A stretch of 64,000 nucleotides of DNA, from IMG/VR virus record IMGVR_UViG_3300034161_000018, positions 1 through 64,000 of that record; one strand, given 5' to 3'. Shown here one piece after another: positions 13,593-55,058 of the stretch. The notes below the pieces were generated by a model. That model worked only from the letters and a program-made list of their open reading frames with translations, ran no database searches and had not been told where the DNA came from. The position numbers were made by a program, and so were the translations under genes. The stretch comes from a virus (taxonomy: Duplodnaviria; Caudoviricetes). Within the stretch, counting starts at the first letter, position 1. The number at the start of each line of letters is the position of its first letter.

Positions 13593-13704
13593 AACATCCT
13601 CTAAGTCGTAAGTGTTAAATCTGAGGCACAGTCTCCTCAACGTATACATTGTAACACAGTGGGCACCCTTGGCAATCCATAAGCCTTACGGGATACCGTA
13701 AGTT
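13593..13704 (-). promoter_or_regulatory. promoter cassette 1: sigma70-like promoter between two inverted 20-bp sites
   Basis: -35 TTGCCA (13670-75), 16 bp, extended -10 TGtTACAAT (13648-53). Sites 13593-612 (- strand CTTACGACTTAGAGGATGTT) and 13685-704 (+ strand CTTACGGGATACCGTAAGTT). Confidence 0.85.
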
Positions 13705-13712
13705 CAGGCGCC

Positions 13713-13750
13713 GAAATGGAAATGCCCCGCGCTGAATAAACAGGCGAGGC
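13713..13750 (-). terminator. intrinsic terminator upstream of cassette 1
   Basis: GCCTCGC..GCGGGGC stem followed by ATTTCCATTT. Confidence 0.55.
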
Positions 13751-13761
13751 AAGTCCGTTTG

Positions 13762-14202
13762 TTACAGGGCCAAAGCGGCCAGTTTCGCTTCCAGTCGTTT
13801 TTTCAAATGTTCGGGCGTCAAAGCCGCCTCAATCATTTCGTCCAGTTGCTTTTGGAATTCCGGCAACTTCGCTTCAAACACTTTCTGGATAACCGGCGTC
13901 ACCGATTGGATAATCAGTTCTTCCGTTGCTTGCTCGATTTGAGCGTTAATCAGTTTCTTCAACAAGTCATGTAGCGGACTATTGTGAAACGGATTAATCA
14001 TGGAGCTGTTGCGATTCCAACCAGCCGCAAAGTTTGCCAGTTGGTCAAGCTGCGCTTTCAGCTTTTCCAAGACGGCGGCTTTGCAAACATCATCGGAAAT
14101 GTTTTTCAACACTGCCGAACTGATTTGCAGTTTCAGTTCCGGATCGGATTCAACCAGCGCACGCAGCAAACCTGTATCGGCTTTCAGTACGATTGGTTTC
14201 AT
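13762..14202 (-). CDS. hypothetical protein
   Basis: 146-aa helical ORF. Confidence 0.85.
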   Translation of the reverse strand: MKPIVLKADTGLLRALVESDPELKLQISSAVLKNISDDVCKAAVLEKLKAQLDQLANFAAGWNRNSSMINPFHNSPLHDLLKKLINAQIEQATEELIIQSVTPVIQKVFEAKLPEFQKQLDEMIEAALTPEHLKKRLEAKLAALAL

Positions 14203-14465
14203 TCCGACACCTTGCCCTTTGCCTGCAAACGTTTGTGCGCTTCACGAATACGCGCATACACCGCACACAGAAACGTCCACGCCAGCAGCGCAAAATGTTT
14301 GACTCCATCCCACACGATGCGCGCTGTGGTCAGCATGTTTGCAATAACCAGTGCCGCGAATTCCCAACCGTCGTCGCATTGTTTGCGCTGGCGGTACGTG
14401 AAAAACAGCGATACCCAAAACCAACCGACCAAACAGCCGATTAGAAACAGAACAATTTGTCCCAT
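14199..14465 (-). CDS. small membrane protein
   Basis: Hydrophobic segments; overlap coupling. Confidence 0.7.
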   Translation of the reverse strand: MGQIVLFLIGCLVGWFWVSLFFTYRQRKQCDDGWEFAALVIANMLTTARIVWDGVKHFALLAWTFLCAVYARIREAHKRLQAKGKVSE

Positions 14466-14471
14466 GATTGT

Positions 14472-15809
14472 TTACTCGTTTTCGATCAAGACGTGCGGAA
14501 CAAACCGTTCGTTCTTGATGCCAAGCACCGGCGAATCGAATTCGCGAATGCAGAGCGTTGCGGCAGTTGCCGATTTCATCGTGTTCAGGTTGTCCGCAAC
14601 ATCCGGCACCATAAACATTCCGATGATGAAGTTTTCGCGACCGGGCACTTGATAAGGTGGGACGTAGTGCTGAAACACTTTGTCCTCCGGATACGGGCCG
14701 TCGGTTTTGAATTGCGTAGCGCCAGCGCCGTTGATGATTTCGATGTTGCAACTCATGCGGCCAACTTTTGGTTTGGCAACATACGGCAAGTGGTAATCAG
14801 TGAACGGTTTGGTATCGACGTAAGTTTTGATCGCGGGGACTTCTTTGTACTTCGCGTAAAACTCTTTGTCGTTTTCAAACAGATGGGTGACGTAGGCCCA
14901 AATGCCTTTGTTCGACGCAAACCAACGCCACGCCGGTTCAAAGAAAGTCAGGTTGCCTGCCCAGTTCGCCCATTCTTTGTAGGCTTGCGGGAACGACTCG
15001 ACCATTTCTTCCCACGGCACCAGCGCGAAGATTACCGAAAGGTGATCGTTGCCAACCACGAACGGCAAACTTTTGCTTTCAAAGTCGTAGTCGATTTCGT
15101 TTATGTCGGTGAACAGGCAGATATTGTTTTCGCCGAGAATCTGCGCAATGACTTCACAGGTCGCCATGTCTTCAAACGATTTGCTGTCGAAGATTACGGC
15201 GGCAGTTCCCGGCATTGGGCCGAGGTCGGAAATCAAAGTTTGCAGCAACGGATAAAAACTATTCAGTTGCAGTTCAATGTCGCCGGTCACTTGTTCGCAA
15301 ACGTGGTTTTGCACGGCCACGGATTCAAACAGCATGGTCGGAGTGTCGCCGTTGAATTCGTAGATGCCGACGATTTCTTCTTTCACCGGATCGAATGCGG
15401 CATCAAAGCGACCGTAGATCGACTGGCGTGCCGAACCGAAATCGCGATACGAAAACTTTGCGTAGTCGATGAAGTACGGATGTTTGCGCAGGAACTCACA
15501 GCCGACGTAGTGCATCAGCGTGTCGTTCGATTCGCCAAACAAACGGCCAACCGCTTCGACCAGCATTGCGTAGGCCAGTTCAAATTGCGTTTCGATCTTC
15601 GCGCAGGAACTCAGGCCCAGTTCGTAAACCGGCATGGCCGCACTGTTTGCCAACGGGAAAGAAAAATACTCTTTTACGTCAGCGTGAAACTCGCCATCGC
15701 TTTGGCTTTCTGGACGCGGAGCTTCGCGGTAAAACGCTTGAGTCCACGGCAGTTCTTCAACCATCAGAGCATTGAGGTTGAAATTGATGTTGTGGTAATT
15801 GCAACGCAT
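14472..15809 (-). CDS. glutathionylspermidine synthase family ATP-grasp protein (YgiC/YjfC-like)
   Basis: YGRFD, IYEFNGDTPTMLFES, LVPWE, FEPAWRWFASNKGI, KPKVGR motifs. Confidence 0.9.
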   Translation of the reverse strand: MRCNYHNINFNLNALMVEELPWTQAFYREAPRPESQSDGEFHADVKEYFSFPLANSAAMPVYELGLSSCAKIETQFELAYAMLVEAVGRLFGESNDTLMHYVGCEFLRKHPYFIDYAKFSYRDFGSARQSIYGRFDAAFDPVKEEIVGIYEFNGDTPTMLFESVAVQNHVCEQVTGDIELQLNSFYPLLQTLISDLGPMPGTAAVIFDSKSFEDMATCEVIAQILGENNICLFTDINEIDYDFESKSLPFVVGNDHLSVIFALVPWEEMVESFPQAYKEWANWAGNLTFFEPAWRWFASNKGIWAYVTHLFENDKEFYAKYKEVPAIKTYVDTKPFTDYHLPYVAKPKVGRMSCNIEIINGAGATQFKTDGPYPEDKVFQHYVPPYQVPGRENFIIGMFMVPDVADNLNTMKSATAATLCIREFDSPVLGIKNERFVPHVLIENE

Positions 15810-15839
15810 TGAAAAAATCTCCTGAATGCCGAAACCGAA

Positions 15840-18367: not shown

Positions 18368-18633
18368 TGGAATTCCTTATTCATTTCGTCGAGTTCAGCC
18401 ATTGCGCGATTGTATTTCGCAATGTTGATGCCTTGAACCATCGTGACCGCTGGATAGAATGCAGCGAAAGCCACGACCATAAAAATACAATACAGCGTAG
18501 TCAGATATTCCAACGACCACGGCAAGGCGATTAAATGGAAGTAGGAACCGATTGCCCAAAGGGTCGGAGCCAGCCCGAGGCCGATGAACGCGAGTATAAA
18601 CAAAACTAGTTTCTCTAACTTGCGCCCTTCCAT
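18364..18633 (-). CDS. two-TM membrane protein
   Basis: Two hydrophobic helices. Confidence 0.8.
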   Translation of the reverse strand: MEGRKLEKLVLFILAFIGLGLAPTLWAIGSYFHLIALPWSLEYLTTLYCIFMVVAFAAFYPAVTMVQGINIAKYNRAMAELDEMNKEFQ

Positions 18634-19478: not shown

Positions 19479-19487
19479 TTCTGTTCC

Positions 19488-20473: not shown

Positions 20474-20490
20474 TTCCCTGTGAAAGTAAG

Positions 20491-20533: not shown

Positions 20534-20542
20534 GATTTCGTT

Positions 20543-20884: not shown

Positions 20885-20896
20885 GTAACGCTCCGT

Positions 20897-21238: not shown

Positions 21239-21246
21239 AAACGTCC

Positions 21247-28586: not shown

Positions 28587-28700
28587 AACTTCCAGTAAGT
28601 CGTAAGTGTTAACCTTCGGGCTGGTGTTTCTCCAGCAGGGTCATTGTATCACAAACGACAGTAGGCCGGAAGCTCTTACGCTTACAGCCTACTGGAAGTT
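28587..28700 (-). promoter_or_regulatory. promoter cassette 2
   Basis: -35 TTCCGG (28666-71), 17 bp, TGaTACAAT (28643-48). Sites 28587-606 (- CTTACGACTTACTGGAAGTT) and 28681-700 (+ CTTACAGCCTACTGGAAGTT). Confidence 0.85.
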
Positions 28701-42969: not shown

Positions 42970-43028
42970 GTTGAATCCCCTTGCGTTTCGTTTAGTATGA
43001 AATGTTTGATTGAGTGAGTTCAATCCAA

Positions 43029-43051
43029 CTAGCGACTCCCTGAATCGCTAG
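43029..43051. terminator. intergenic hairpin
   Basis: CTAGCGA-N9-TCGCTAG. Confidence 0.4.
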
Positions 43052-43062
43052 GAAAATTTATC

Positions 43063-43404
43063 TCATTCGTTCCACGGGAAACCTTTCGGCGTCACCATGA
43101 TTTCGCGTTCGTCTTTAAACAAACGTTTTTCGACCGGCACTTCATGGTAGTCCACAAGCGCCTCCATTTCTTCTGGCGTACCGGCGAAACGGAAAAGCGG
43201 AATCCACTCGTCTGTTTCGTATTGGTACGTCCATTTACTGTTCGCCCATTCCGGCGACACGTCCACCAACCGAACATCCATATGGGATGTTTGCGTCGGG
43301 TAGAGTTCACCGTCTACCGGAATCCGCAGAAACGGCGAGTCGCGCAGTTCCAACGTTTCGATTTCGGCCAGTGTGTAAGTTTGGCCGCGTACTGGATACG
43401 TCAT
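43063..43404 (-). CDS. hypothetical protein; first gene after cassette 3
   Basis: Start MTYPVR; AAAGGGGACAAC-ATG. Confidence 0.85.
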   Translation of the reverse strand: MTYPVRGQTYTLAEIETLELRDSPFLRIPVDGELYPTQTSHMDVRLVDVSPEWANSKWTYQYETDEWIPLFRFAGTPEEMEALVDYHEVPVEKRLFKDEREIMVTPKGFPWNE

Positions 43405-43422
43405 GTTGTCCCCTTTCCGTTG

Positions 43423-43537
43423 AACTTCCACTAAGTCGTAAGTGTCAGTGTATCAGGCACGCTGCGCCGAACACGTAGTCAATATAGCACGAAACCCCGC
43501 AATGGGCAGGGTTAAGGCTTACGGTTTAAAGGAGGTT
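43423..43537 (-). promoter_or_regulatory. promoter cassette 3
   Basis: -35 CTGCCC (43504-09), 17 bp, TGcTATATT (43481-86). Sites 43423-442 (- CTTACGACTTAGTGGAAGTT) and 43518-537 (+ CTTACGGTTTAAAGGAGGTT). Confidence 0.8.
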
Positions 43538-43554
43538 CCGGAACCGCCCCGGCA

Positions 43555-43989
43555 TTAGCGGGCCAGCGTTCCCATTACCCTGTGGATTGTGTCGGCGCGG
43601 TTCAGCAGATTTTGCGCGAAGTCGTACAGGCTCATTTCGCCAATGTCCGAGGAACTGAGTTCTGCAAACATTTCCGTAATGGCCGAACGGAACAGGCGCG
43701 CAATCTTGAGCACGTCGTCGTGCCGGTCGCTGGAAATCTTTTCGTCGCAAACGCTGACAGAAATGCGCAGCGCCATCGGCAAAGAAACGCGAACCAGATT
43801 CGCAAGGAAGTCTTTGTCTATGTCAAACATATCGAGAGGCAATCCGGCCTCCAAATAGTTTACGGCTGGATAAGTCGGGTCGGGGCGCAGCGTGCGGAAA
43901 TTTTGTTCCAGCGCATACGCAAACTCTTTCGGACTCAATTCAGCGAAACGATCCATCAACATCGAAGGGTATTGTTTTGGAGTGTTCAT
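43555..43989 (-). CDS. hypothetical protein
   Basis: Start moved to MNTPKQ. Confidence 0.8.
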   Translation of the reverse strand: MNTPKQYPSMLMDRFAELSPKEFAYALEQNFRTLRPDPTYPAVNYLEAGLPLDMFDIDKDFLANLVRVSLPMALRISVSVCDEKISSDRHDDVLKIARLFRSAITEMFAELSSSDIGEMSLYDFAQNLLNRADTIHRVMGTLAR

Positions 43990-44189
43990 TAGTTTTGTTC
44001 CTGATTGTGTTGTTGAACCCGCGAATCGCAGGCGTCTGATTTGGTGCAGTGTCCGCCAGTCCACGAACACGCATAGCCGTTGTGACTGGTTCCGTTCCGG
44101 GCCGCGTCGATCTTCATTCGCAGCGGGCAATTTGTTTGTGAGTGGCCCGGATGGTTTTCATGATTTCCACGGTGCGGCATTAGTGACAA
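43989..44189 (-). CDS. small Cys/His protein
   Basis: 66 aa; overlaps both neighbours. Confidence 0.5.
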   Translation of the reverse strand: MSLMPHRGNHENHPGHSQTNCPLRMKIDAARNGTSHNGYACSWTGGHCTKSDACDSRVQQHNQEQN

Positions 44190-44419
44190 ACTCCTGTGAG
44201 GAACGCGACCTGTTCAATTAGTTTGTAGCAAGACAGCGCCAGCAGCGCGTGGAAAATCCACGGCAGCCGAATGTATTCGTAACGGAAATTCGCAGCAACG
44301 TACAGCGGGTTTTCGTTGTGCTTCTTTTCCTCGCGGGCATTCACCTTGCGCAGATACCACTTGATCCAGATGAAACCAATAATCCCCGAAACCGCCAGTG
44401 CTAAAATAATCCAGTTCAT
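44180..44419 (-). CDS. two-TM membrane protein
   Basis: 79 aa. Confidence 0.8.
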   Translation of the reverse strand: MNWIILALAVSGIIGFIWIKWYLRKVNAREEKKHNENPLYVAANFRYEYIRLPWIFHALLALSCYKLIEQVAFLTGVCH

Positions 44420-44431
44420 TGCCGTAGTCCT

Positions 44432-44887
44432 TTATCGTCTTGCGACTTTCTTTGTCGTCGCCTTCTTGAGCGTCGAATGCGGGAAGCCGTGATTTTCGTC
44501 CGCGTACAGAATGCGGTTTAGTTCCAGCGAATTGTCGGCGAATGAAATAATGTCGAAGGCCAGTTGCCCAGCGCTATCGAAACAAACCGCCATGCCGCCA
44601 GACGGATCAAACATTCGTGCAAACATTACGCCGCCTTCTTTCGGTTTCAGCACAACGAAACGCGGAGCCGACCTAGAGTTCACAACCGGTTCCACCGTTG
44701 TGTCTGCATCCTCGAAATAAATTGCATCGTATTCCGTGGCGGCGATTCCCATCATGCCTGCAAGTTCGTCCGCTGAAAGTTCGCGGTCACGGAATGGAAT
44801 TCGCACGCGGGTCAACTGTGAAGCGTCGAGCACAAACGTTGCGATTCCGCCGTGATGGAACCAGAAACCAAACAGACCAGTTTTCAC
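44432..44887 (-). CDS. hypothetical protein
   Basis: 151 aa; GGAGG RBS. Confidence 0.8.
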   Translation of the reverse strand: MKTGLFGFWFHHGGIATFVLDASQLTRVRIPFRDRELSADELAGMMGIAATEYDAIYFEDADTTVEPVVNSRSAPRFVVLKPKEGGVMFARMFDPSGGMAVCFDSAGQLAFDIISFADNSLELNRILYADENHGFPHSTLKKATTKKVARR

Positions 44888-44918
44888 GATAACCTCCCGA
44901 GCCGAAGCTCGTTACAAA

Positions 44919-45398
44919 CTATTCGCTTTCTTCTTCGTGGCGCCCAAGGTGAGTGCCAGAAACTTCGCGATGAACTTCAAACATCGGTTCGGACGTTTTC
45001 AGCAGGCGTCTCGCTTCGCCTTGCGTGTGGCAGAAATCGTAAATGTCCACGCGCTTTTCCGATCCTTCTTCGGTCAACTGATTGTCGTAACCGATTCGGG
45101 CGTCGAAGAATTGCCAACTGCGTTCGGTGATTTCCACCACGCTTTTCGTGATTGCAATCGGAGGTGTCAGGCAATGGTCAAATACGATTTCGACCGACAC
45201 GTTTTGTTTGAGGAAAGTTTTGCTGGTGCGTTCCTCAATGCAAACATCCAGCAACGGTTTCAGCGCCGCCACTTCTTTAGTGGTCAGGTGATAGTTTAGC
45301 GCGGCTTCGTGGTTCTGGTCGATGATGAAAAACGGCTTGCGACCTTCTGCGTAAATCCAGAAGCCGAGGATTGGTTTCAGTTTTGGAGTGCGTGCCAT
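44919..45398 (-). CDS. hypothetical protein
   Basis: 159 aa; GGAG RBS. Confidence 0.85.
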   Translation of the reverse strand: MARTPKLKPILGFWIYAEGRKPFFIIDQNHEAALNYHLTTKEVAALKPLLDVCIEERTSKTFLKQNVSVEIVFDHCLTPPIAITKSVVEITERSWQFFDARIGYDNQLTEEGSEKRVDIYDFCHTQGEARRLLKTSEPMFEVHREVSGTHLGRHEEESE

Positions 45399-45413
45399 GT
45401 TTGTGTCTCCCGA

Positions 45414-45638
45414 TTATGTGCGACGAATGCCGCCGTTGTTTTGTTTCGGTTGAGTGATGAGCTTGTCCAGCCTGTAGAAACAGTATGCGACCACGCAAAC
45501 AATTGCGTAGGCCAGCGCTTTCATTTGCCAGTGCGCAGCCATTAATTCCATGCCGCCTTTCTGGTACATCAGCCAGCCGGTGACGGCAGGCAAAAGGAAC
45601 ATCGGTAAAACGTAAAACAGAAACGTGCTAACTTTCAT
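45414..45638 (-). CDS. two-TM membrane protein
   Basis: 74 aa. Confidence 0.8.
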   Translation of the reverse strand: MKVSTFLFYVLPMFLLPAVTGWLMYQKGGMELMAAHWQMKALAYAIVCVVAYCFYRLDKLITQPKQNNGGIRRT

Positions 45639-46108
45639 ACGCGTTGCATACCCTTCTTTTTCTTCCGCTTCGGCGCGCTGCCAGTGGCAACCCGCGCAAT
45701 GGTTTCGTGTTCTTTGGCGTGGCGTTTCGCCCGGTCAGATTTCTTTTCGTGTTTGACCTTAGAATCCCCGCCAAGTAAATCGTTGCCCTGATCCATCGTC
45801 ATTGAAACGTCAAACACAACGTCAACATTTGGCCGTTGCGGTTTCGGCATTCGTGCGCTGGCTTCCGGCGACTTGTGCGAAATTGACGCTACAGGTTTCG
45901 GGCGTTTCTTCACAACCACAACCGGGTCGGGCCGTGGTACGTCAATGCGTCCGGCCAAACGCAAAAGCAATCGAGTGGCGACCAGTGAGAGCGTGGCGAC
46001 TTCCTCCAAAGTGTTTGCGTCAACAGTGGAAGCGGTTTTGCCGTTGAGCAAGGCCAACGCTCCCGCTAACTGCCGTGTGCCTTTCTCAAACAAAACTGCG
46101 TTTTTCAT
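45635..46108 (-). CDS. hypothetical protein with basic C-terminus
   Basis: Start MKNAVL; GAGG RBS. Confidence 0.8.
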   Translation of the reverse strand: MKNAVLFEKGTRQLAGALALLNGKTASTVDANTLEEVATLSLVATRLLLRLAGRIDVPRPDPVVVVKKRPKPVASISHKSPEASARMPKPQRPNVDVVFDVSMTMDQGNDLLGGDSKVKHEKKSDRAKRHAKEHETIARVATGSAPKRKKKKGMQRV

Positions 46109-46115
46109 ATTCACC

Positions 46116-46307
46116 TCAAATGTTTACGTCGATCCCGCAAGTGTCGAGTTCGCCCACCATTTCAATTTGGCGGTACGCATTCAGCTTGCGCATCGTTTCA
46201 CAACTCGGAACATCCGGCACCAGCACAACGTCCATCGAATCTCTTGCAGCGTCTTTCCGAACATCCGAACTTTTGTAATCGGCTACCACGTTACCATTGC
46301 GTTCCAT
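46116..46307 (-). CDS. hypothetical protein
   Basis: 63 aa. Confidence 0.65.
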   Translation of the reverse strand: MERNGNVVADYKSSDVRKDAARDSMDVVLVPDVPSCETMRKLNAYRQIEMVGELDTCGIDVNI

Positions 46308-46319
46308 GCTGACTCCAAA

Positions 46320-46796
46320 CTATTTTCGTTTTTTCTCCTTGGGTTTCGGCATGACAGGCCGCATCATAACGAACCGTAGGACGAATTGGCTTTGGTTGGT
46401 AAAGCGACTTCGTGCAGCGTGTTTTTCGATCACGCGCAGAAGTGTATCGGCAAACTCAAACACTGCCCGCTGTGCAGGCGACGGCAAAACTTCGGTCGGC
46501 GACTTCTCCTTAAACAATAATCTGAATGCCTTGGCGCGTTGTTGTAAACGCACGGCCCTCATTTCGTAAAGCGCGTCGGCCAGTTTCAGAATCTCCCGGC
46601 AATCGAAGTTTACGAAAGTGAGTCTGTCCGGGTCAGCGTCTGCAAACTTTTTCAGTTCGGCAACGCCGTTGTATCCCGAGTGCTTTTTCAGAACAGCGGG
46701 GAATGCTTTGAGCACTCCCGCCGTGGTGGTGCAGGCAAAGCTTCCGCTGGCGATCACGCTAACAATGTTTGTGTTCATAAATCCCCAGCGGAGCAT
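46320..46796 (-). CDS. hypothetical protein
   Basis: 158 aa (alternative start 46778). Confidence 0.8.
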   Translation of the reverse strand: MLRWGFMNTNIVSVIASGSFACTTTAGVLKAFPAVLKKHSGYNGVAELKKFADADPDRLTFVNFDCREILKLADALYEMRAVRLQQRAKAFRLLFKEKSPTEVLPSPAQRAVFEFADTLLRVIEKHAARSRFTNQSQFVLRFVMMRPVMPKPKEKKRK

Positions 46797-46797
46797 T

Positions 46798-47508
46798 TTA
46801 GTAGGTCAGTGAAACGCGGCGTTTGCCGAGCGGTCGGTTGAAATGGTCGGCCAGTGTTGTGTCGGCGTAATAACCTTTCGAGTTCAAGTAGCAGCGGTAC
46901 GCGACGGCTTCCGCTTCGTCTTGGTCTTCTTCACCAAAATAAAGGTCGTCGTATTTCACCGCGCAAATGTCGGTGTGGTCGCATTCGGTAATCAGAATCT
47001 GGTGAAATTCTTCGCCATACAGAAAACCTTTGATATGGTCTTCGTTGTCGGCGTCGTCGCCGGTGTATTCCGAAAGCAGGCGATTGGTGTCAACTGCCGT
47101 GCGGCTGTTGCTGAATTCCACAAACGACATAAACTTGCCGTCGTCTTTGTGAACAATTTCCATGAAGTCGAAACCCGTAGGAACGCGGATAACGTGGACG
47201 CTGTTTTCCAAAAGATTGCGACGATTGTGCGGCAAGTTGTAGTAGAGTTCAGCGACCGGCGACAGGCAAAGCGCGGCACGCAAAACAGTTTGGTAATCGC
47301 CCTGCATGATTGCAACCGGCGTCGTGATATGCGCGTTTTGCTGGTTGCGGATTTCAACGAGGAACACGCCGTAACGATTGTCCTCGGTGTCGAAAGTTTT
47401 TGCAATGTCTTCCAGTTGGCGTTTGTTGCGCGGCAGTGCGAAAGCGCTCAACAAAACATTGCCGTAAGATTGGTTGCTTACGTTTGTAGCCAGTTCCAAA
47501 TAACGCAT
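46798..47508 (-). CDS. hypothetical protein
   Basis: 236 aa; AGGGG RBS. Confidence 0.85.
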   Translation of the reverse strand: MRYLELATNVSNQSYGNVLLSAFALPRNKRQLEDIAKTFDTEDNRYGVFLVEIRNQQNAHITTPVAIMQGDYQTVLRAALCLSPVAELYYNLPHNRRNLLENSVHVIRVPTGFDFMEIVHKDDGKFMSFVEFSNSRTAVDTNRLLSEYTGDDADNEDHIKGFLYGEEFHQILITECDHTDICAVKYDDLYFGEEDQDEAEAVAYRCYLNSKGYYADTTLADHFNRPLGKRRVSLTY

Positions 47509-47539
47509 GGTGATTTTCCCCTGAAATGTTTGCAGTGAA

Positions 47540-48049
47540 TTAGTTTGCAGCTTCGGTCAGGCCGTCGTCTTCGTCTTTCAACGACGGCAGTTGTTCGTGC
47601 TTTTCTTCGCCGTAGGCCAGCAGTGCCATTGCTTCCAGAACCGGCATTGAAACGTTGTCGTTCTTGTCGGTGAAGTATGGCGTCACGCTCGCGAAGTCGT
47701 CGAGGTACGAAATGATTGCGAACGGTGCCCAGCGGGAAACGCGACCATCACTGCAAACAACGCGGTGACGAAATCCCGAATCATTCCAACCGGCGCCAAC
47801 TTCTTTGGTTTCGATCTTGTAGGTTTTCGGCAGCGCACTTTCCAAAACAGTTTCGCTGATTTCGATGTTGCTCGCGAACCCGATAACTTCATCGACGGTC
47901 AGGTCGGAAAGTTTCTTGCCGGTGAAATGGCTCAGGCGTACAACGTTGCCGTCCGCAATGCGGAACCCGTAACCGCGACCGATACGCACAAATGAAATCG
48001 GCAGGTCTTTCAGGCGGGCATTAACTTCTTCAAACTTTTGCTCAGACAT
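47540..48049 (-). CDS. hypothetical protein
   Basis: 169 aa. Confidence 0.85.
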   Translation of the reverse strand: MSEQKFEEVNARLKDLPISFVRIGRGYGFRIADGNVVRLSHFTGKKLSDLTVDEVIGFASNIEISETVLESALPKTYKIETKEVGAGWNDSGFRHRVVCSDGRVSRWAPFAIISYLDDFASVTPYFTDKNDNVSMPVLEAMALLAYGEEKHEQLPSLKDEDDGLTEAAN

Positions 48050-48070
48050 TTCGATTGTCCCTGAATAGAT

Positions 48071-48093
48071 CGGAGCGCCGAAAGGGCGCCCCG
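48071..48093 (-). terminator. GC-rich hairpin after 48105 gene
   Basis: CGGGGCGCC-CTTTC-GGCGCTCCG; weak U tail. Confidence 0.45.
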
Positions 48094-48104
48094 TGTTGCG
48101 GTGA

Positions 48105-49589
48105 TTAGTTGCGCGCTGCGGTCACTGCCGCCGAAACGGCTTCGGTGCAGATTGCAGATTTCTTGGCGAGGTCAATCAGGCGCTCGCGAATCTTTTTGTC
48201 GGTGAAACCTTTGTGGGCAATATCAACCGCCACACAAATGCGTTCCAGTTCTTCGCGGGTCGTGTGCGACAAACTATCGCGCAGCGAAATGATTTCGTTG
48301 GATTCTTTCGGTTCGGCGAAGTCGTCATCTTCTTCGTCGTCTTCGTCTTCGTCCTCGAAATCTTCTTCGTCTTCTTCTTCGTCGTCCACCAGATCAAAAG
48401 TTTCGTTGAACCGTTCCTGTGCCGCGTGCAAATCAGCCTCGGAACTGGCAATTAAAACAGTGACCATCACGGTTTCGTTGTCGTGAACAGTTTTCGCGTC
48501 CAGAACAACAACCGAAGGGTCAGCGGTGAACGCTTTGTGCATTGCGAGCTTCGCGACTTCGTGGATGCTCTCAACTTTTTCGTTGCTCAGCAGAATGCGC
48601 GCCGGGGTTTCTTCTTCTTCTTCGTCGTCGATTTCTTCCGCTTCAAATTCGTCATCGTCCGAATCATCTTCGTCTTCGTCGTCTTCCATTTCGACTGTTG
48701 GGTCGAAGCCGAAGTCTTCCCACTCGCAAACATTTGCAACGAACGGTTCAAACTCCAGCAAAATATCTGAACCTTCGGTCAGGCGGCTTTCGTCCGCCAA
48801 ATCCGTAATCGCATCTTTCAGTTCACTGAGAATCTGGAAAGGCGATTCAAAGTAAGCTGGTTTGAAACGCTCGCTCGGAATGGCCGGAATGTTTTCGACC
48901 GATTCTTTGAAGTTGTTGCGTTCTTCTTTGCGGCGGTAATCGGCGAAGTCGATCAACTGATAACCGAGTTCGACGATTGAGTCGCGGTCGAAACCGAGTT
49001 TGTTTGGCAGAGTTGCCGGAATGAACGTGGCGCGTTCTTCTTCGGTCGCATCCTGTTTCGGGGTTTTGACTTCCAACCCTTCTACCAGCGACAGCAGCGA
49101 CGAATAGGAAACCAGACGTTTCAAATTGTTTGCAGCAACCGCCAGCGATTCGGTCGGCCAGATACCGATTACTTCACCGCCGAGAGTAACGCGGGTCAAT
49201 TGCAAATCGCCTTCGTAATCTTCCGGCGAGAATTCGTTGCCGTCCACGTCGTCGCGAACCACGATCAAAACATCACCGTCTTCGTCCGGCTCCAGTTCGT
49301 CGCGGCATTCTTCCAGTTCTTCCAACAAACCGGAAACCAGTTCTTCGCCTTCAACCAGCGTCAAACATTTTGCTGGCGAGTAACCGACGAAAAGATTCAC
49401 TTCCAAATCTTTGTTCAACGTCGCCAGCAGGTAATCGTTTTCGCGACCTTCTTTATCGGCGGCGTCCGGATTGATTTCAGGGTAACTACCCACAACTGCG
49501 GCGAACCCATAAAGTGCTTGCGGTTGCACTTCGCCGTTTTCGTCCATTGCGCGAATGATTACACGTTGGCCGTTTTGGTATTGTTGCAT
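48105..49589 (-). CDS. very acidic protein with possible C-terminal HeH/Rho-N-like motif; first gene after cassette 4
   Basis: 494 aa; long D/E tracts; LSHTTREELERICVAVDI..KIRERL. Confidence 0.9.
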   Translation of the reverse strand: MQQYQNGQRVIIRAMDENGEVQPQALYGFAAVVGSYPEINPDAADKEGRENDYLLATLNKDLEVNLFVGYSPAKCLTLVEGEELVSGLLEELEECRDELEPDEDGDVLIVVRDDVDGNEFSPEDYEGDLQLTRVTLGGEVIGIWPTESLAVAANNLKRLVSYSSLLSLVEGLEVKTPKQDATEEERATFIPATLPNKLGFDRDSIVELGYQLIDFADYRRKEERNNFKESVENIPAIPSERFKPAYFESPFQILSELKDAITDLADESRLTEGSDILLEFEPFVANVCEWEDFGFDPTVEMEDDEDEDDSDDDEFEAEEIDDEEEEETPARILLSNEKVESIHEVAKLAMHKAFTADPSVVVLDAKTVHDNETVMVTVLIASSEADLHAAQERFNETFDLVDDEEEDEEDFEDEDEDDEEDDDFAEPKESNEIISLRDSLSHTTREELERICVAVDIAHKGFTDKKIRERLIDLAKKSAICTEAVSAAVTAARN

Positions 49590-49642
49590 GGGTGAATCTC
49601 CTGAATTGTTTGTGTGTTGCCTGTGCGGGCAAGGTGCCCTTA

Positions 49643-49755
49643 AACTTCCGCTAACTCGTAAGTGTCAACATGCGGGGTGCGGATTTCCCAGCTAAGACAT
49701 TGTATCATACTGGCCCCGGATTGGAATAGCCTACGCTTACGCGCTAGGGTACGTT
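49643..49755 (-). promoter_or_regulatory. promoter cassette 4
   Basis: -35 TTCCAA (49721-26), 16 bp, TGaTACAAT (49699-704). Sites 49643-662 (- CTTACGAGTTAGCGGAAGTT) and 49736-755 (+ CTTACGCGCTAGGGTACGTT). Confidence 0.85.
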
Positions 49756-49781
49756 CCCCCGGCCCGTTTTCCGGAATCCAG

Positions 49782-49812
49782 AAACGCGAAAGGGGAACCG
49801 CAATGGCTCCCC
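49782..49812 (-). terminator. intrinsic terminator upstream of cassette 4
   Basis: GGGGAGCC-ATTGC-GGTTCCCC-TTTCGCGTTT. Confidence 0.7.
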
Positions 49813-49818
49813 AATCGT

Positions 49819-50436
49819 TTACATATCGTCGTCGTCGAACTCGTCCGAATCGTCGTCTTCATCTTGAACGCGCCGCGCCTTTTTCTGAGGCTGGCCGTTA
49901 ACTGGAACGCAACCGTTTGGAATGGCGCGCAGAATCCACGGTTTGGTTTCGAGCAACGTCCGGCGTTGTGTTTGCAGTCGGTCGCGTGCGTCTTCCAAAT
50001 CGTCCAGCGGGTCATTCACCGCCGAACCCAAAACATTGCGCAGCGATTCGATTGCCGCGTTTACGTGCGCAATGTCGGAGTCGATTTTGTCGAGTTGTGC
50101 TTGTTCCTGAATCGCCAACACTTCCAAAACGTTTTTCGCGAACTGAACTTTCTCGCGCTGGTTTACAGGCAGACGCCAGCCGGGAGGCGCCGCTTGGATT
50201 TTCGTAGTGCGTCCGGGCGATACCTGTTCCACTTTCGGGAACTGATTGGTTTCCACCAGATAGTTGCGAATCAGGCGTTGCACGGCGCGGCCATTCATCG
50301 TGGTGAAAAACAATTGCGCGCCGGTAGGTTCAACCAGTTCGATCACGCTTTGCGCTTGCTGTGCAGAAAGTTCGGGCGCAATTTGGCGCAGCCGTTCTTC
50401 CAACATTTTTACGATTTCAACCCGCTTAACAGTCAT
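49819..50436 (-). CDS. hypothetical protein with coiled coil and acidic tail
   Basis: 205 aa. Confidence 0.85.
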   Translation of the reverse strand: MTVKRVEIVKMLEERLRQIAPELSAQQAQSVIELVEPTGAQLFFTTMNGRAVQRLIRNYLVETNQFPKVEQVSPGRTTKIQAAPPGWRLPVNQREKVQFAKNVLEVLAIQEQAQLDKIDSDIAHVNAAIESLRNVLGSAVNDPLDDLEDARDRLQTQRRTLLETKPWILRAIPNGCVPVNGQPQKKARRVQDEDDDSDEFDDDDM

Positions 50437-51104
50437 GCCATTTCCCTTTCGGTTTTGGTTAGGAACGCGTCAATCTTTTTGCGGATACGCGACGTGCCGA
50501 TCAAGGCTAGGCCGTTCTCCACTCTCTGAATATCTTTTACAGTTTCCAGAATCTCTGCCGCCATTTCCTCACGGCGGATATGCAGCGCCTTGCGACGGAG
50601 CAACAACCGGTTGGCTTCTATTTTGAAAGTGTCGCGGCGCCGTTTCCAAATTGGAGCCATCGCAGGTTTGCGTTCCAAACGTTTTGCTTTGTGTTGTTCG
50701 GCAGCTTGGCGACCGGCTACAACATCGGCCATCAGTTCCGGGTCGTCGTCTTCTAAAGCGATTTGTTCAAGTTCTGCATCCCACGTCGATTCGTAAACAA
50801 ATGGCGTGTCGCCGGGGCTTTCGGAAATGTAGTTCTGCAATGCGTCCAACACTTTCGGCTCAATGTTTGCACTCGGCACGTCATCGAGAATTGGCAGAAT
50901 GGTACGGGCCAGAAACTCGTTGCGTTCATTGATTTGGCGATGCAGGTTCGCCATGTTTGCGGAAACCGAAGGATCGAGTGCAACCGCCACGTTCCACTGA
51001 ATCAGATTTTGCAACGTGGTCATTGGATCAGCCGGATCGAAGTCACAGTGGCTGATAATGCAAAGTTGTTCAACTGCGGTTTGGAAAGTGAATGATTCAC
51101 TCAT
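50433..51104 (-). CDS. hypothetical protein
   Basis: Start moved to MSESFT; LIQWNVAVALDPSVS motif. Confidence 0.8.
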   Translation of the reverse strand: MSESFTFQTAVEQLCIISHCDFDPADPMTTLQNLIQWNVAVALDPSVSANMANLHRQINERNEFLARTILPILDDVPSANIEPKVLDALQNYISESPGDTPFVYESTWDAELEQIALEDDDPELMADVVAGRQAAEQHKAKRLERKPAMAPIWKRRRDTFKIEANRLLLRRKALHIRREEMAAEILETVKDIQRVENGLALIGTSRIRKKIDAFLTKTEREMA

Positions 51105-51444
51105 TTTCGCTAATGTCCTTTTTCGATTTCTTTGGAACGACAGGGCCGTCAACCAGATAACTGAGTGGGGCTTCGGTTAGAACACGCTCAAGGTTTCGGG
51201 CCAGCCGGGTTTCGCGGGCGGTTTCCAAACGGGCGCGCATTCTGATTTCGGAAAGCTGGGCTTCGCGCAAGTCGAAATATTTCTTGGCGAAGTCGTCGCG
51301 TTCAACTTCCGTTTGTTTGCAGCGTTGCTTCCACATTGCGGCGCGCATAAAGTCACCGATCCACAGAAGCAAAAACAGAATGGCCAGCAGTATCGCTACT
51401 GCCAGCCAGAAGTTTGAAATGAAGTCGTCGAAGTTTAGCGTCAT
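51097..51444 (-). CDS. TM plus coiled-coil protein
   Basis: 115 aa. Confidence 0.8.
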   Translation of the reverse strand: MTLNFDDFISNFWLAVAILLAILFLLLWIGDFMRAAMWKQRCKQTEVERDDFAKKYFDLREAQLSEIRMRARLETARETRLARNLERVLTEAPLSYLVDGPVVPKKSKKDISENE

Positions 51445-52049
51445 TCTGTTTTCCTCAGATCATGGTAAACACATTTGGAATATTTCTTGGCGAAAGCCAG
51501 AATCTCGCGGCGCTGTTTGAAAGGCAGCGTGTTGAAAAACTCGGGGTTGTTGCAGCAAACAACGTGTTCCGGTTTTACTGTTTGGGCCAGCGCAACAACG
51601 TGTTCACCTTCGTCACCATTCCCGCCATTCAAATAACCTTGCGCAGCGAGGCGGTGCGTTTCGTTTGCCCACAATGCCGCTTCCTTAAACGCGGCCTCCA
51701 CGTCGAGGATGCGGCCAAACTTTTCAATTTTCACCACAATCCAATCGGTCGGGCGTGCGCTGTTTGTTGACGCGTACTGCAAATCGAATCCAGCAGCGTG
51801 CGTAGGGCAATCGGTTGTGCAAACAATTTTGCCGGGAACGAGAGAGTCCAGTTGGTCGCGGTGCATTTTCCGGTAAACAAATTCCGGCATGGGCGACGAT
51901 TGTTTGCCGATCAATTCAGCGGCAGCCAACGCCCCGGACACGCAATAAACCCGGTGGCGTTTGTGGCGATACCGACTGTTGATCCATTCGTCACCGTTTA
52001 CGTGATAGGCCAAATGTTTGATGATTTGGTCGGCGGTGCGTTTGTTCAT
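51441..52049 (-). CDS. putative ADP-ribosyltransferase (R-S-E / exotoxin-like fold)
   Basis: Ordered motifs YHVNGDEWINSRYR, FVYRK, LVPGKIV, CTT..AAGF, IVVKI..G.ILDV, DEGEHVV. Confidence 0.55.
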   Translation of the reverse strand: MNKRTADQIIKHLAYHVNGDEWINSRYRHKRHRVYCVSGALAAAELIGKQSSPMPEFVYRKMHRDQLDSLVPGKIVCTTDCPTHAAGFDLQYASTNSARPTDWIVVKIEKFGRILDVEAAFKEAALWANETHRLAAQGYLNGGNGDEGEHVVALAQTVKPEHVVCCNNPEFFNTLPFKQRREILAFAKKYSKCVYHDLRKTE

Positions 52050-52324
52050 CGACGCGTTCTCTTTTCGTCCAAACGTTTGTGCAGAATGCGGATTGCTTCA
52101 CTGCCTTCTTGAACCGTTTTAACCAAGGTCATGATGTGCGCGTGCTGTTCCATATTGTTCAGCAGCAAATCAGCGTTGCCCTTTTCCAAAACCTTGATGT
52201 GCTGGTTCCGAATTTCAGACATTTTCTTGTGGTGGTTTTTCCGAAGCCACAAAGTCAGCACCAGACAGCCAACGGTGAGACATGCCATAACGACTTGAGC
52301 CAATGCCGAGTATTTTCCAAACAT
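52046..52324 (-). CDS. TM plus coiled-coil protein
   Basis: 92 aa. Confidence 0.8.
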   Translation of the reverse strand: MFGKYSALAQVVMACLTVGCLVLTLWLRKNHHKKMSEIRNQHIKVLEKGNADLLLNNMEQHAHIMTLVKTVQEGSEAIRILHKRLDEKRTRR

Positions 52325-52325
52325 T

Positions 52326-52769
52326 TCAAACCTCCTTGATTGCGCGTCGGGCGTGGTCAGTGAACTGTTTGTTCAACCATTCCAGATTACAGTCGCGCAT
52401 GAAATAAACGATGTTGCCGTTTTCGGTAACGCCTTGCTCAACATCTGCCGGGTCGATGTGTTCAGCCATTCCATCGCGGAACGCTGTGATTTCGTCGGCG
52501 CGGCGATCCAACACAAACTGGTATTCTTCCAAACTTTTTTGGTCGCGACTTTGGTTGAACATCACAACCATCGTCAGGTCGTTGCTGGTTTCGTTTTCGT
52601 CACGGAGGCGCCAAACAAAGCGGCGCATCTTGCCGGGGGCCATGCTGGATTCCGCCATTTCGACAACGCCTTTAAAGCAGACGCCGTGATACTGCGGATT
52701 GTGGCCGAGCACTTTCAGAAAATCTTCTTTGGACATTGAAGCATCGACCAGCGCAGCGCAGAAAATCAT
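52326..52769 (-). CDS. hypothetical protein
   Basis: 147 aa. Confidence 0.8.
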   Translation of the reverse strand: MIFCAALVDASMSKEDFLKVLGHNPQYHGVCFKGVVEMAESSMAPGKMRRFVWRLRDENETSNDLTMVVMFNQSRDQKSLEEYQFVLDRRADEITAFRDGMAEHIDPADVEQGVTENGNIVYFMRDCNLEWLNKQFTDHARRAIKEV

Positions 52770-52993
52770 TTTGGTTCGTCCTTCGGGAAAACCCGTTCTT
52801 TGGTCACAGCGTTGTAGACGTGAAAGCCGACTGGATTAATCTCGCCCATTTCAGCAGCGCACGTTTTCGCATTTTGTTCGTCTTGAAATTCCGCGCCAAT
52901 CTTTTCGCGGTTGATGTAACCGGTGCGATTCAGGGTCGGGCCGAAATACGGTTTGCCGGTGTAGGCACGGCTGGCCTTGATAACGTGAAACAT
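52766..52993 (-). CDS. hypothetical protein
   Basis: 75 aa. Confidence 0.75.
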   Translation of the reverse strand: MFHVIKASRAYTGKPYFGPTLNRTGYINREKIGAEFQDEQNAKTCAAEMGEINPVGFHVYNAVTKERVFPKDEPK

Positions 52994-52994
52994 T

Positions 52995-53279
52995 TTATTC
53001 GTCCTTTAATTGGCTGTTCGTAAAACCGAGGATTGGGATTTTCATGTACGTGCTGCAAACTAAATAGGTGTCCCAACCAATGCGCGCATCCGGGCCGTAG
53101 GCTTCGACACGAACTGTTTGCAGCGTCAGTTCCCGGTCGAGTTCTTCTTGCGTGAACGGGAAACCAGATTCCAGCGCCAGCTTTTTCGCGTGGGCGATCA
53201 CTGCGCTTTTCGTTGGTTCCAGTTCGACAACCGTTTCCATTGAAGCGGCAAGCGAGCCGCGATGTTCGCGAAATTTCAT
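52995..53279 (-). CDS. hypothetical phage protein
   Basis: MKFREHRGSLAASM..DARIGWDTYLV. Confidence 0.8.
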   Translation of the reverse strand: MKFREHRGSLAASMETVVELEPTKSAVIAHAKKLALESGFPFTQEELDRELTLQTVRVEAYGPDARIGWDTYLVCSTYMKIPILGFTNSQLKDE

Positions 53280-53288
53280 TTTGAATCC

Positions 53289-53597
53289 TCAGTGCAGAAC
53301 AGGAATGACGGATTCGATTTCGCCACCAAACAAACCGAAAGTGCTGGAGCGCAATTCATCGTCCGGCCACGGCTTCATCCGGTTTTCATCTTTCCAGATT
53401 GTGTCGGCGTCCATTTGCACGACGATGGTGTCAGGGCAGCGGCACTGATTATCGCGAATTCCCAAAACGGTGCCAGTGCCGGTCGTGCCGTGGCGGGTCT
53501 TCACTTTCACGCGGTCGCCCTTCTTGATGATTAAGCGGCCCGAATCAGACTCGAAAGAATCCAGCAGACCAGAAGTGTTTACAGTTACGTCATTCAT
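53289..53597 (-). CDS. small protein with SH3/KOW-like strand pattern
   Basis: IKKGDRVKVKTRHGTTGTGTV. Confidence 0.7.
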   Translation of the reverse strand: MNDVTVNTSGLLDSFESDSGRLIIKKGDRVKVKTRHGTTGTGTVLGIRDNQCRCPDTIVVQMDADTIWKDENRMKPWPDDELRSSTFGLFGGEIESVIPVLH

Positions 53598-54199
53598 TTT
53601 ACAGCCTCCGAAATGTTGAGAGAGTTGACTGCGGCAATCATTTTGTCGAGTCGGGCTTTGAAACTCTTAAACGATTTGAATTCGATTCCCCACGCTTCAC
53701 ACTCACCCAACACGTCCCACTGGCTTGTTGTGAGTTTGGTTTGGTTGTGGGCCTTCATCCCCTCAGTGGTCGCGTTAATTGAGTAGGCCAAATAATCTTC
53801 GTCTTTGCATTTCGAGTTTCCCATCGGGACTTCGATGTTGACTTCGATAACCGCGCCGGATTTACCAATTGGCAGCGAAAACCTTTGTTCGCCGAAAAAC
53901 TCGGAATGGTTCCAAACAGTTGGAACTTCAAACTGCGGGTCTTTGTGTGCGTAATGTTTGCGGTCGAGTTTGAATCCGGCGTCAACCAAAGCGGCTGTCG
54001 ATTTGGTGAAAGCAGGCAGCAACTTTTCCAACGGGGCGCGGCGTTGTGCGATAAAAGTTTCCGGCGCTATCTTGTGGGTCTGTCCATAGCTCAGAACTAA
54101 AGCACGTTCGCGCAGCGGGCGCAGTTGGGCTTCCAGTCGGGCGATTTTCTTTTTCAGTTCTGCGGCTTCGTCGGCGTGTGCTTTAGTGAAACGTGCCAT
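53594..54199 (-). CDS. hypothetical protein
   Basis: 201 aa; AAGGA RBS. Confidence 0.85.
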   Translation of the reverse strand: MARFTKAHADEAAELKKKIARLEAQLRPLRERALVLSYGQTHKIAPETFIAQRRAPLEKLLPAFTKSTAALVDAGFKLDRKHYAHKDPQFEVPTVWNHSEFFGEQRFSLPIGKSGAVIEVNIEVPMGNSKCKDEDYLAYSINATTEGMKAHNQTKLTTSQWDVLGECEAWGIEFKSFKSFKARLDKMIAAVNSLNISEAVK

Positions 54200-54226
54200 G
54201 ATTCGATTCCTTGAAATGTTTGCAGG

Positions 54227-54508
54227 TTAAACGGTGAAGTGGAATTCTTCGACCGGCATTGCGACGGCGCGGCTTTCTGCGCGGTTCCAGTCGCACGCGT
54301 AGAAACGTTCGCGAACCAGCATGTCGTTTTTGTCGCGGCATTCCAGAATCACAACACACGACGATTCATACGTGCAAAGCTTGTTGGCCTGTTCGACCAT
54401 AAACTTTTCGGTCGTGTTGAAATGTTGGAACAGGCGAGTACGCATTTCGTCGCGGATTTCAAAACCCACAACCTTGTTGCCTTTCGGTGAAATTTTAATC
54501 TTGGCCAT
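54227..54508 (-). CDS. hypothetical protein
   Basis: Start moved to MAKIKI (AAGGGG RBS). Confidence 0.75.
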   Translation of the reverse strand: MAKIKISPKGNKVVGFEIRDEMRTRLFQHFNTTEKFMVEQANKLCTYESSCVVILECRDKNDMLVRERFYACDWNRAESRAVAMPVEEFHFTV

Positions 54509-54518
54509 GTCTATCCCC

Positions 54519-54719
54519 TTACCATTCTGCGTATGCTTGTTTGCCCAATGCAACAACTTGAGCGACCGAAAGTTTGTCGAGCGGTTCATCGGTCAGGTCT
54601 TCTAACCGGGCTTTCGTATCGCGGAAGTGGAAAGCGTAGCTGCCACCGGCGCCCAACCGAAACTCAATTCCGGTTCCAATCAATTCGCGATTCACCGCGT
54701 CAGTGTTTACGTGTGCCAC
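54519..54719 (-). CDS. hypothetical protein
   Basis: Probable GTG start at 54719 (GAGGA RBS). Confidence 0.65.
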   Translation of the reverse strand: MAHVNTDAVNRELIGTGIEFRLGAGGSYAFHFRDTKARLEDLTDEPLDKLSVAQVVALGKQAYAEW

Positions 54720-54747
54720 GATTCTGTCCTCTGAAAATGTTTGCAGT

Positions 54748-54894
54748 TTAGATCGAGCTACGGAAACGGCGCTGTGCATTACGAACCTGTTGTTCGCGGG
54801 CCTGTTCGGCTTCGATCAGTGCGCTATTCCACTGCCAAGTTTTGCGGGCAGTGCGGGAGGTTTTGTTTTCGGCGGTCTGAGTGTTTGTACGCAT
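54748..54894 (-). CDS. small protein; first gene after cassette 5
   Basis: Hand-translated 48 aa MRTNTQTAENKTSRTARK...; GGGGA RBS. Confidence 0.55.
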   Translation of the reverse strand: MRTNTQTAENKTSRTARKTWQWNSALIEAEQAREQQVRNAQRRFRSSI

Positions 54895-54944
54895 GGCAAT
54901 GTGTCCCCAATTATTATGTTTGCAGGAAGGTGGCGGTGTGCCTG

Positions 54945-55058
54945 AACTTCAGTTAAGTCGTAAGTGTTAACTTGCGGGCTGGTGTTTCCCGAGTATTGAC
55001 ATTATCCCATAGCGGGCCGGGATTGGAAATCAGTTACCCTTACGGCCTAGTGTACGTT
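54945..55058 (-). promoter_or_regulatory. promoter cassette 5
   Basis: -35 TTCCAA (55023-28), 16 bp, TGgGATAAT (55001-06). Sites 54945-964 (- CTTACGACTTAACTGAAGTT) and 55039-058 (+ CTTACGGCCTAGTGTACGTT). Confidence 0.85.

Follow-up and report, generated by a model that had tools for sequence, protein, structure and literature searches.

Paired inverted 20-bp sites around the host-type promoters of a Lu11-like jumbo phage: candidate operators of early transcription

Jumbo phages of the Lu11 group possess no RNA polymerase of their own and have an unusual sigma factor, and the question is how the hand-over from host sigma70 to phage sigma is timed. It is raised here by a 64,000-nt stretch of phage DNA (the window), the first 64 kb of the viral record IMGVR_UViG_3300034161_000018 (274,896 bp with direct terminal repeats, 50.6% G+C), in which a series of sigma70-like promoters, each lying between two inverted copies of a 20-bp site, is located at positions 13593–55058. 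The only DNA-level match among sequenced phages was Pseudomonas phage Lu11, the phage of the window being a Lu11-like jumbo phage, and its genome consists of two divergent arms, on the minus strand up to ~155 kb and on the plus strand thereafter. An original prediction, made from the letters of the window, had described five such promoter cassettes and suggested a phage-wide switch in which a regulator loops out the promoters of host RNA polymerase. The cassettes are genuine, statistically secure and evolutionarily conserved. They represent a variation on the known operator and promoter-cassette logic of phages, in which the family-wide data shift the emphasis to the promoter-downstream site as the core element; a looping repressor is a reasonable reading of the sequence patterns.

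The pattern CTTACNNNNTANNNNANGTT (CTTAC-N4-TA-N4-A-N-GTT, 11 invariant positions) had exactly 10 matches in the window and none in 100 dinucleotide-preserving shuffles. The matches formed five inverted pairs, 13593(-)/13685(+), 28587(-)/28681(+), 43423(-)/43518(+), 49643(-)/49736(+) and 54945(-)/55039(+), with start-to-start offsets of 92, 94, 95, 93 and 94 bp, which reproduced the predicted coordinates, invariant positions and distances. All five window promoters and the neighbouring long open reading frames (ORFs) were found on the minus strand, with start codons and Shine-Dalgarno sequences just left of the minus-strand copies. Therefore, the minus-strand copies are the downstream sites in the 5' leader (D), while the plus-strand copies lie upstream of the -35 element (U), and the upstream and downstream sites of the earlier strand reading have to be swapped.

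The five cassettes of the window (A–E) are all real, but the set was too small: a consensus scan of the full genome, in which a D copy was scored if at least 22 of 27 positions matched, gave nine cassettes with 18 sites (9 D and 9 U), every site lying within a promoter cassette. The four additional cassettes (F–I) are on the plus strand beyond the window, with D at 160987, 165696, 168514 and 184936. No further sites were detected genome-wide, with no other position scoring above 19/27 against the 27-mer consensus. The strict 11-position pattern is kept in 9/9 D and 7/9 U copies of this genome, in opposite orientations. In the 168514 cassette the U copy is degenerate, and a third, partial inverted copy (CTTACGCCTTAACGCCGTTC) is present ~13 bp downstream of D (genome 168546–168565, minus strand).

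The predicted imperfect palindrome was recovered at the sites, but its proposed form, CTTACG-N6-CGTAAG, is better replaced by the pseudo-palindrome A-CTTAC-N8-G(G/T)AAG-T, with the half-site ACTT(A/C)C and a fixed 8-bp gap. The U and D arms of one cassette are identical at 13–17 of 20 positions and do not covary, for which reason their pairing as an RNA or cruciform stem was rejected. The cassette interiors have diverged, with a mean column identity of 63%. Likenesses noted by eye to known elements, namely the GacA box (TGTAAG-N6-CTTACA), rrn boxA, a 16S rRNA segment and the consensus sequences of IHF, Fis and LexA, were dropped because of register mismatch.

In gene orientation the order of elements is U (~-63 to -44), a gap of 7–10 bp, the -35 element, a spacer of 16–18 bp, TGn with the -10 element, 34–38 nt of leader and D (~+29 to +48), the site centres being near -53.5 and +38.5 relative to the start. 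The first gene follows D at a distance of 5 to ~55 nt in the window cassettes and 3–130 nt across the nine-cassette family. The regular promoter positions had been foreseen, but the distances had to be corrected to 7–10 bp (U to -35) and 34–38 bp (-10 to D), as found in 13 of the 15 cassettes of two phages, i.e. this genome and the distant relative described below, to which all 15-cassette comparisons refer. As predicted, an extended -10 promoter (TGn with TACAAT, TATATT or GATAAT) is present inside every window pair, accompanied by a mostly weak -35; a generic promoter scan called cassettes A and E of the five, both with the TG extension. The leader between the -10 element and D has a hairpin of 4–9 bp starting from ~+2 in 13/15 cassettes; the hairpin keeps its fold but varies in sequence from one cassette to another and among orthologues. 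Since mRNA decay depends on the 5' end, its simplest reading would be a 5'-terminal stabiliser. A divergent promoter directed towards U was considered and seems unlikely: only the reverse complement of a -10 element is present on that strand, with no conserved -35 or hairpin.

Cassette A has its D site (CTTACGACTTAGAGGATGTT) at 13593–13612 (-), ~+29 to +48, with GAGGA as the Shine-Dalgarno sequence and an ATG 5 nt on. It is preceded by the initial transcribed region at 13613–13647 (-) with the 5'-proximal hairpin TGAGG...CCTCA and by the promoter at 13648–13675 (-), which combines the -35 element TTGCCA (13670–13675), a 16-nt spacer and TGt with TACAAT (13648–13653). Its U site at 13685–13704 (+), ~-63 to -44, is indeed the perfect CTTACG-N6-CGTAAG palindrome predicted there. 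In cassette B, D at 28587–28606 (-) and U at 28681–28700 (+), both matching the pattern, enclose a leader at 28607–28642 (-) with the hairpin GCTGG...CCAGC and a promoter at 28643–28672 (-) with the weak -35 CTTCCG, an 18-nt spacer and TGa with TACAAT. The pattern-matching sites of cassette C, D at 43423–43442 (-) and U at 43518–43537 (+), flank a leader with a two-tier hairpin at 43443–43480 (-), near-identical in the relative's copy, and a promoter at 43481–43509 (-) consisting of CTGCCC, a 17-nt spacer and TGc with TATATT. Cassette D likewise has pattern matches at 49643–49662 (-, site D) and 49736–49755 (+, site U), a leader hairpin at 49663–49698 (-) and a promoter at 49699–49727 (-) with ATTCCA as the -35, a 17-nt spacer and TGa with TACAAT. 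In cassette E the pattern-matching D (54945–54964, -) and U (55039–55058, +) are separated by a hairpin-containing leader at 54965–55000 (-) and the promoter at 55001–55029 (-), called by the promoter scan, with TTTCCA, a 17-nt spacer and TGg with GATAAT.

Each cassette heads a co-oriented block of 5–15 kb, in agreement with the predicted gene modules, made up mostly of small genes without assigned function; the leading genes of all nine blocks gave almost no matches in Pfam and PHROG scans. In six cassettes U is placed after a terminator-like hairpin. Terminators had been proposed upstream of three of the five window cassettes, and the single upstream hairpin recovered by the terminator scan is the intrinsic terminator at 55088–55116 (-), with a 12-bp stem and a T-rich tail, which ends the preceding block upstream of cassette E. 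The terminator-like hairpin upstream of cassette D and its U site at 49736 (49781–49812, -; GGGGAGCC-ATTG-CGGTTCCCC followed by TTTCGCGTTTC) has a good GC stem and that tail, and the third, near 13720–13760, is doubtful; in the family as a whole such hairpins stand out clearly at some cassettes only. Near-identical hairpins (GGGGAGCCATTGCGGTTCCCC with a T-rich tail) precede the 49736 cassette, at 49781–49812 (-), and the 160987 cassette, at genome 160905–160950 (+), and a TTCCGGA(A)-type motif occurs after several cassette hairpins; from these two features, the repeated unit may reach ~60 bp upstream of U.

Pattern scans of viral contigs recovered a distant relative (G001), represented by a 124-kb and an 18.7-kb contig, with a duplicate coming from a different sample. 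A metagenome-wide pattern scan returned the same relative again and no further one, and the matches of an initial 14-mer scan for relatives were for the most part due to chance. The proteins of the relative are ~45–75% identical to those of this phage, and the DNA aligns in patches only. All six comparable cassettes were retained in it, syntenic and in identical orientation, with offsets (relative/here) of 91/92, 95/94, 95/95, 94/93, 95/94 and 129/127, the last pair belonging to cassette I. Thus, both the phage-wide nature of the arrangement and the conservation of its spacing in a relative (91–95 bp, with 129 at cassette I) held up. Identity between the two phages was highest in D (93%), followed by the -10 (86%), the -35 (78%) and U (77%), and was 65–75% in the other segments; in U the invariant positions persist and the remaining ones drift. 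This indicates that the sites and their placement are under selection, which acts much more strongly on D.

The wider family is represented by Lu11 (JQ768459), a 26-kb contig (G004) and three viral contigs of ~300 kb. All of these have CTCAC-N8-GGAAGTT behind a TTGAC-type promoter and a hairpin: the left half-site reads CTCAC where this phage has CTTAC and the inner TTAG is shifted by 1 nt, the total length of CTCAC-N8-GGAAGTT being constant. The early promoters of Lu11 are similar to those described here in being of the sigma70 type and followed by a hairpin and a D-like element, and they include three orthologous cassettes: that of cassette I, located beside recA, that of cassette H, at Lu11 position 117408, and a third which is probably the orthologue of cassette G. 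They differ in the CTCAC half-site and in the presence of U at a single cassette, the orthologue of cassette I, where it was found above background with an offset of 86, as in the G004 orthologue (85), and nowhere else. The D-only cassettes of the wider family argue that D is ancestral, working without a partner, and that U is an add-on, which in the lineage of this window appears to have been placed at every cassette. The distance from -10 to D in Lu11 is 36–38 nt in six cassettes and 48–49 nt in two (in part counted by hand); the two outliers, with approximately one helical turn extra, give a weak hint of a face-of-helix constraint. In the first 12.5 kb of the Lu11 record, one promoter preceding a D-like element is annotated as sigma70-like early, and in the portions of the record considered the promoters are annotated and the D element is not. 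Directly upstream of the -35 of the left-end early promoter, Lu11 161–239 (locus L157) contains 3–4 tandem 19-bp repeats (GCGCACGCGTATAGAGGCT), which are loosely D-like (CnCACG...TAGAGG).

The assignment of the cassettes to an early class was consistent with the distribution of a second motif, AAACTGTAAA, present in 25 copies genome-wide and following the gene direction. Four copies are in the window (142, 50536, 62171 and 62396, all on the minus strand) against 0.24 expected. The motif matches the core of the annotated middle/late promoter of Lu11, CTGTAAATATACAGTA, and is presumably the promoter of the phage sigma factor. It is rare and largely absent in the cassette-headed region, which fits the cassettes as the host-sigma70 early class. 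At cassette G (165696) two copies are located directly upstream of U and one downstream of D.

The interpretation that we favour, tentatively and somewhat short of calling it probable, is that D and U are the primary and the auxiliary operator, respectively, of one dimeric regulator that would turn down early transcription. The invariant positions are shared by sites of either orientation, U is in most cases located past the hairpin, in DNA not transcribed from the cassette promoter, and the arms do not covary, which together point to one trans-acting factor on duplex DNA; the two-fold symmetry, with outer blocks separated by an 8-bp gap, is typical of a dimer on two half-sites. From these features we infer recognition at the DNA level by a single sequence-specific dimeric DNA-binding protein, probably phage-encoded, that would read both sites, D being a primary operator of high affinity that goes far back in this phage family, and U a weaker auxiliary one. 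Host sigma70 RNA polymerase would use the extended -10 promoter of the cassette, and occupancy of the sites would most likely lower early transcription at the switch to the phage's own sigma factor with its AAACTGTAAA promoters. The protein bound at D would block the polymerase leaving the promoter (a roadblock at +29 to +48), and its contact with the U-bound protein would stabilise the block through a ~93-bp loop enclosing the promoter. The positions of U and D are just outside the usual polymerase footprint, and a strong primary operator with a weak auxiliary one is a feature of known looping systems; the roadblock plus the loop is plausible as the most economical model of repression.

A search for the protein that might bind the sites gave two candidates. 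Among the 129 small ORFs of the cassette-headed regions, only two DNA-binding proteins were recognized by Pfam, both in block A. An XRE-type helix-turn-helix (HTH) protein (HTH_3) of 307 aa with a C-terminal HTH, encoded at 8736–9659 (-), stays a candidate binder among the three regulators proposed originally. The second of these, an AmrZ-like ribbon-helix-helix protein of 168 aa with an N-terminal domain (6656–7162, -), is a weaker candidate, and the third, the ORF at 35314, lacks any recognisable domain, DNA-binding or other. The domain of the 6656–7162 protein matched Pseudomonas AmrZ (PDB 3QOQ) with a phmmer E-value of 1e-15; the match takes in the DNA-reading strand, ADKFV(I/V)R, whose K, V and R are kept, while the C-terminal ~110 aa of the protein are unrelated to AmrZ. 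AmrZ itself reads GGC-N5-GCC with an A/T linker (PMC3325190). The AmrZ-type reading strand and the GGC specificity make this protein more likely a mimic of host AmrZ than the binder of U and D; the phage may thus imitate a motility/biofilm regulator of its host, and the sequence hints at a Pseudomonas host. Lu11 has an early HTH_3 protein of its own, together with a LytTR protein.

Several observations weigh against repression by a dimer held at D and U. The spacing between U and D covers 91–96 bp, i.e. approximately half a helical turn, a spread that a stiff ~93-bp loop would accommodate badly. Outside this range are the 127/129 bp of cassette I, which deviate from the mode by roughly 3 turns, and the 85 and 86 bp of G004 and Lu11, which deviate by roughly 0.8 turn. 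The lopsided conservation (D 93%, U 77%) weakens a strict lac-like loop, and D occurs without U at most promoters of Lu11 and its three ~300-kb relatives, so that looping cannot be the core function of D. The D site is always transcribed, which makes a role at the RNA level possible, and the two roles might coexist. In the Lu11-type cassettes D usually ends 3–6 nt before the ATG, with the GGAAG/GAGGA half serving at the same time as Shine-Dalgarno sequence. At cassette G, the two upstream AAACTGTAAA promoters would read through both sites. As for the binders, the AmrZ-like protein was rejected in this role, AmrZ half-sites being GGC against CTTAC-N8-GGAAG in U and D, and no homologues of either candidate were found in Lu11, G004 or the 124-kb contig of the relative, the last of these being of little weight because the contig stops before the syntenic position.

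The transcribed location of D brings up the alternative that it acts mainly in the mRNA, the 5' hairpin and a single-stranded D forming a common early leader for stability, for ribosome loading or a translational operator, or for nut/ops-like loading of an antiterminator, with U as a secondary, lineage-specific DNA feature. The fixed place of D after a hairpin that differs in sequence and keeps its fold is what such a leader would look like, as is the Lu11-type D with its Shine-Dalgarno sequence 3–6 nt before the ATG and mostly no U, and processive antitermination would be useful in operons of 5–15 kb. However, an RNA reader cannot explain U, a mostly untranscribed site that has the invariant positions of D in inverted orientation; D is conserved even at 18–130 nt from start codons that have a separate Shine-Dalgarno sequence; it occurs only beside promoters and never at internal genes; and neither a conserved RNA fold of D nor an Rfam match at the cassettes was found. 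On this balance, action mainly in the mRNA seems unlikely, though it has to be reckoned with. Both levels would be united in a broader proposal, to which we give a slim chance: D might be a family-wide element gating every host-polymerase early promoter in Lu11-like jumbo phages, whose putative reader, having no recognisable DNA-binding fold, may act both on the DNA operator and on the identical sequence of the mRNA leader, which includes the Shine-Dalgarno sequence, and would thereby stop early transcription and early translation at once, U having been copied upstream of every promoter in one lineage as a clamp.

The sites could also serve recruitment instead of the repression favoured above: a host, virion-delivered or early phage factor bound at U, in the place of an UP element or class I activator, and at D would boost or license promoters with a poor -35. 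The location of U at -63 to -44 is where the polymerase alpha subunit's C-terminal domain and class I activators act, and in the U-bearing lineage the -35 elements are weak (CTTCCG, CTGCCC, ATTCCA), while most of the U-less Lu11 cassettes have TTGACA. Extended -10 promoters, however, do without a good -35, the position of D (+29 to +48) is no known activating position, and the strongly conserved ancestral element is D rather than U, which makes recruitment improbable.

Inverted repeats around a promoter are a hallmark of invertons, and recombination sites had been offered as an alternative in the original prediction. The cassettes would then be shuffling modules similar to the PeSLs (repeated early promoter–stem-loop cassettes) of T4-type phages, miniature inverted-repeat elements, or invertible promoters with 20-bp recombinase arms. 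The succession of stop codon, hairpin, sigma70 promoter, stem-loop and Shine-Dalgarno sequence does resemble the PeSLs (PMC2839356), and the 49736 and 160987 cassettes are preceded, as noted, by near-identical hairpins. Furthermore, in cassette E the homology shared with the relative extends precisely to the 3' end of D and no further, the genes beyond it being unrelated, and one gene has moved between blocks, the relative being too distant for mapping of events. On the other hand, the six comparable cassettes are syntenic and co-oriented in a relative that is very distant, as are the orthologous ones in Lu11, and the orientation is identical in 15/15 cassettes of the two phages and the Lu11 orthologues, i.e. 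the two orientations of an inverton were not seen. The diverged interiors, in which only functional motifs are kept, argue that there was no recent mobility or homogenisation, and together with the lack of visible target duplications and the synteny of the six copies they set the cassettes apart from miniature inverted-repeat and Correia-like elements. No recombinase domain was found among the 129 small ORFs of the early regions, and an interior of 72 bp would be very short for site synapsis. The contigs of four DNA runs with ~90–95% identical relatives had no strand-change joints at cassettes C–E, contigs being unable to show a rare inversion, and an apparent loose end at 49774 arose from a contig that belongs to the paralogous hairpin preceding the 160987 cassette. 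No support emerged for the recombination-site alternative, which we regard as highly improbable. Targeting of the sites by an RNA-guided regulator, with CTTAC holding a TTAC-type adjacent motif (TTAC being a known target motif of IS608-type elements), has a practically negligible probability, as the 15–16 nt after CTTAC have no copy with up to 3 mismatches outside the cassettes genome-wide and none at 146–152 kb, and the U copies vary exactly at the would-be seed positions; a 9-nt match at 149053 was at chance level.

The operator interpretation has its closest counterparts in the lac and gal systems, where O3 and O1 are ~92 bp apart and OE and OI are centred at -60.5 and +53.5, respectively. 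In lac O1–O3 and gal OE–OI, as here, one pseudo-palindromic site occurs twice around a sigma70 promoter at a distance of ~9 turns, one copy being strong and the other weak. The differences are that nine promoters of a phage genome are involved instead of one operon, that the spacing is not phase-exact, that the related phages mostly have D alone and that the present system is known from sequence only. Among phages, the C1 operators of P1, the gp71 stoperators of mycobacteriophage L5 and the conserved inverted repeats of phiC31 are sites of temperate phages that maintain lysogeny, the L5 stoperators downstream of promoters being elongation blocks. Those are likewise short sites scattered over a phage genome that coordinate many units, L5 with a downstream block as D might provide. 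However, they are asymmetric or single and are not known to form fixed inverted pairs around each promoter, while the sites described here are confined to promoters of the host-type early class in a jumbo phage that encodes a sigma factor itself. The PeSLs are repeated cassettes in which a stem-loop and a Shine-Dalgarno sequence are combined with an early promoter of sigma70-like type (Arbiol et al., 2010; PMC2839356), all of which are present here as well; both precede blocks of small genes in plastic regions, and homology between relatives breaks at the borders of the PeSLs and, in the present phage, at cassette E. In contrast, the PeSLs have no conserved inverted 20-bp pair, number ~50 per genome and contain a stem-loop terminator variably placed within the promoter (PMC2839356), whereas the nine cassettes of this phage are syntenic over a large evolutionary distance.

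One 20-bp element at every early promoter, kept between phages whose proteins are about half identical, provides a handle on the early regulon. It predicts early genes, can serve as bait for the regulator and gives compact, possibly switchable promoter cassettes for Pseudomonas-type hosts. Lu11 is cultivable, which makes a direct test of the element possible in that phage.

Relatives ~90–95% identical to window 42500–56000 were present in contigs from freshwater sediment, wetland and wastewater, as well as from one run whose organism name is coded, and one sediment run covers this region at ~64x. They differ by several gene-block indels, e.g. 54508–54720 is deleted and 53599–54227 is replaced, with none listed inside cassettes C–E. 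In the distant relative, the genes just downstream of cassette E (window 52800–54700) are replaced (G001 74500–76900), and the window gene at 47603–47821 corresponds to G001 76071–76289 in a different cassette-headed block, indicating gene flux beside the cassettes. A 357-aa protein with a C-terminal KTSC domain (Pfam E-value 3e-15), encoded by the second gene of block C (41950–43023, -), has a homologue in Lu11 (Lu11_0007). In the region of cassette I (genome 183238–184809 / 185353–186825), the U site, the terminator and the cassette come immediately after a RecA homologue, and the block behind them includes a topoisomerase II/gyrase A-like (A-subunit) protein and a phrog_9342 protein of 138 aa.

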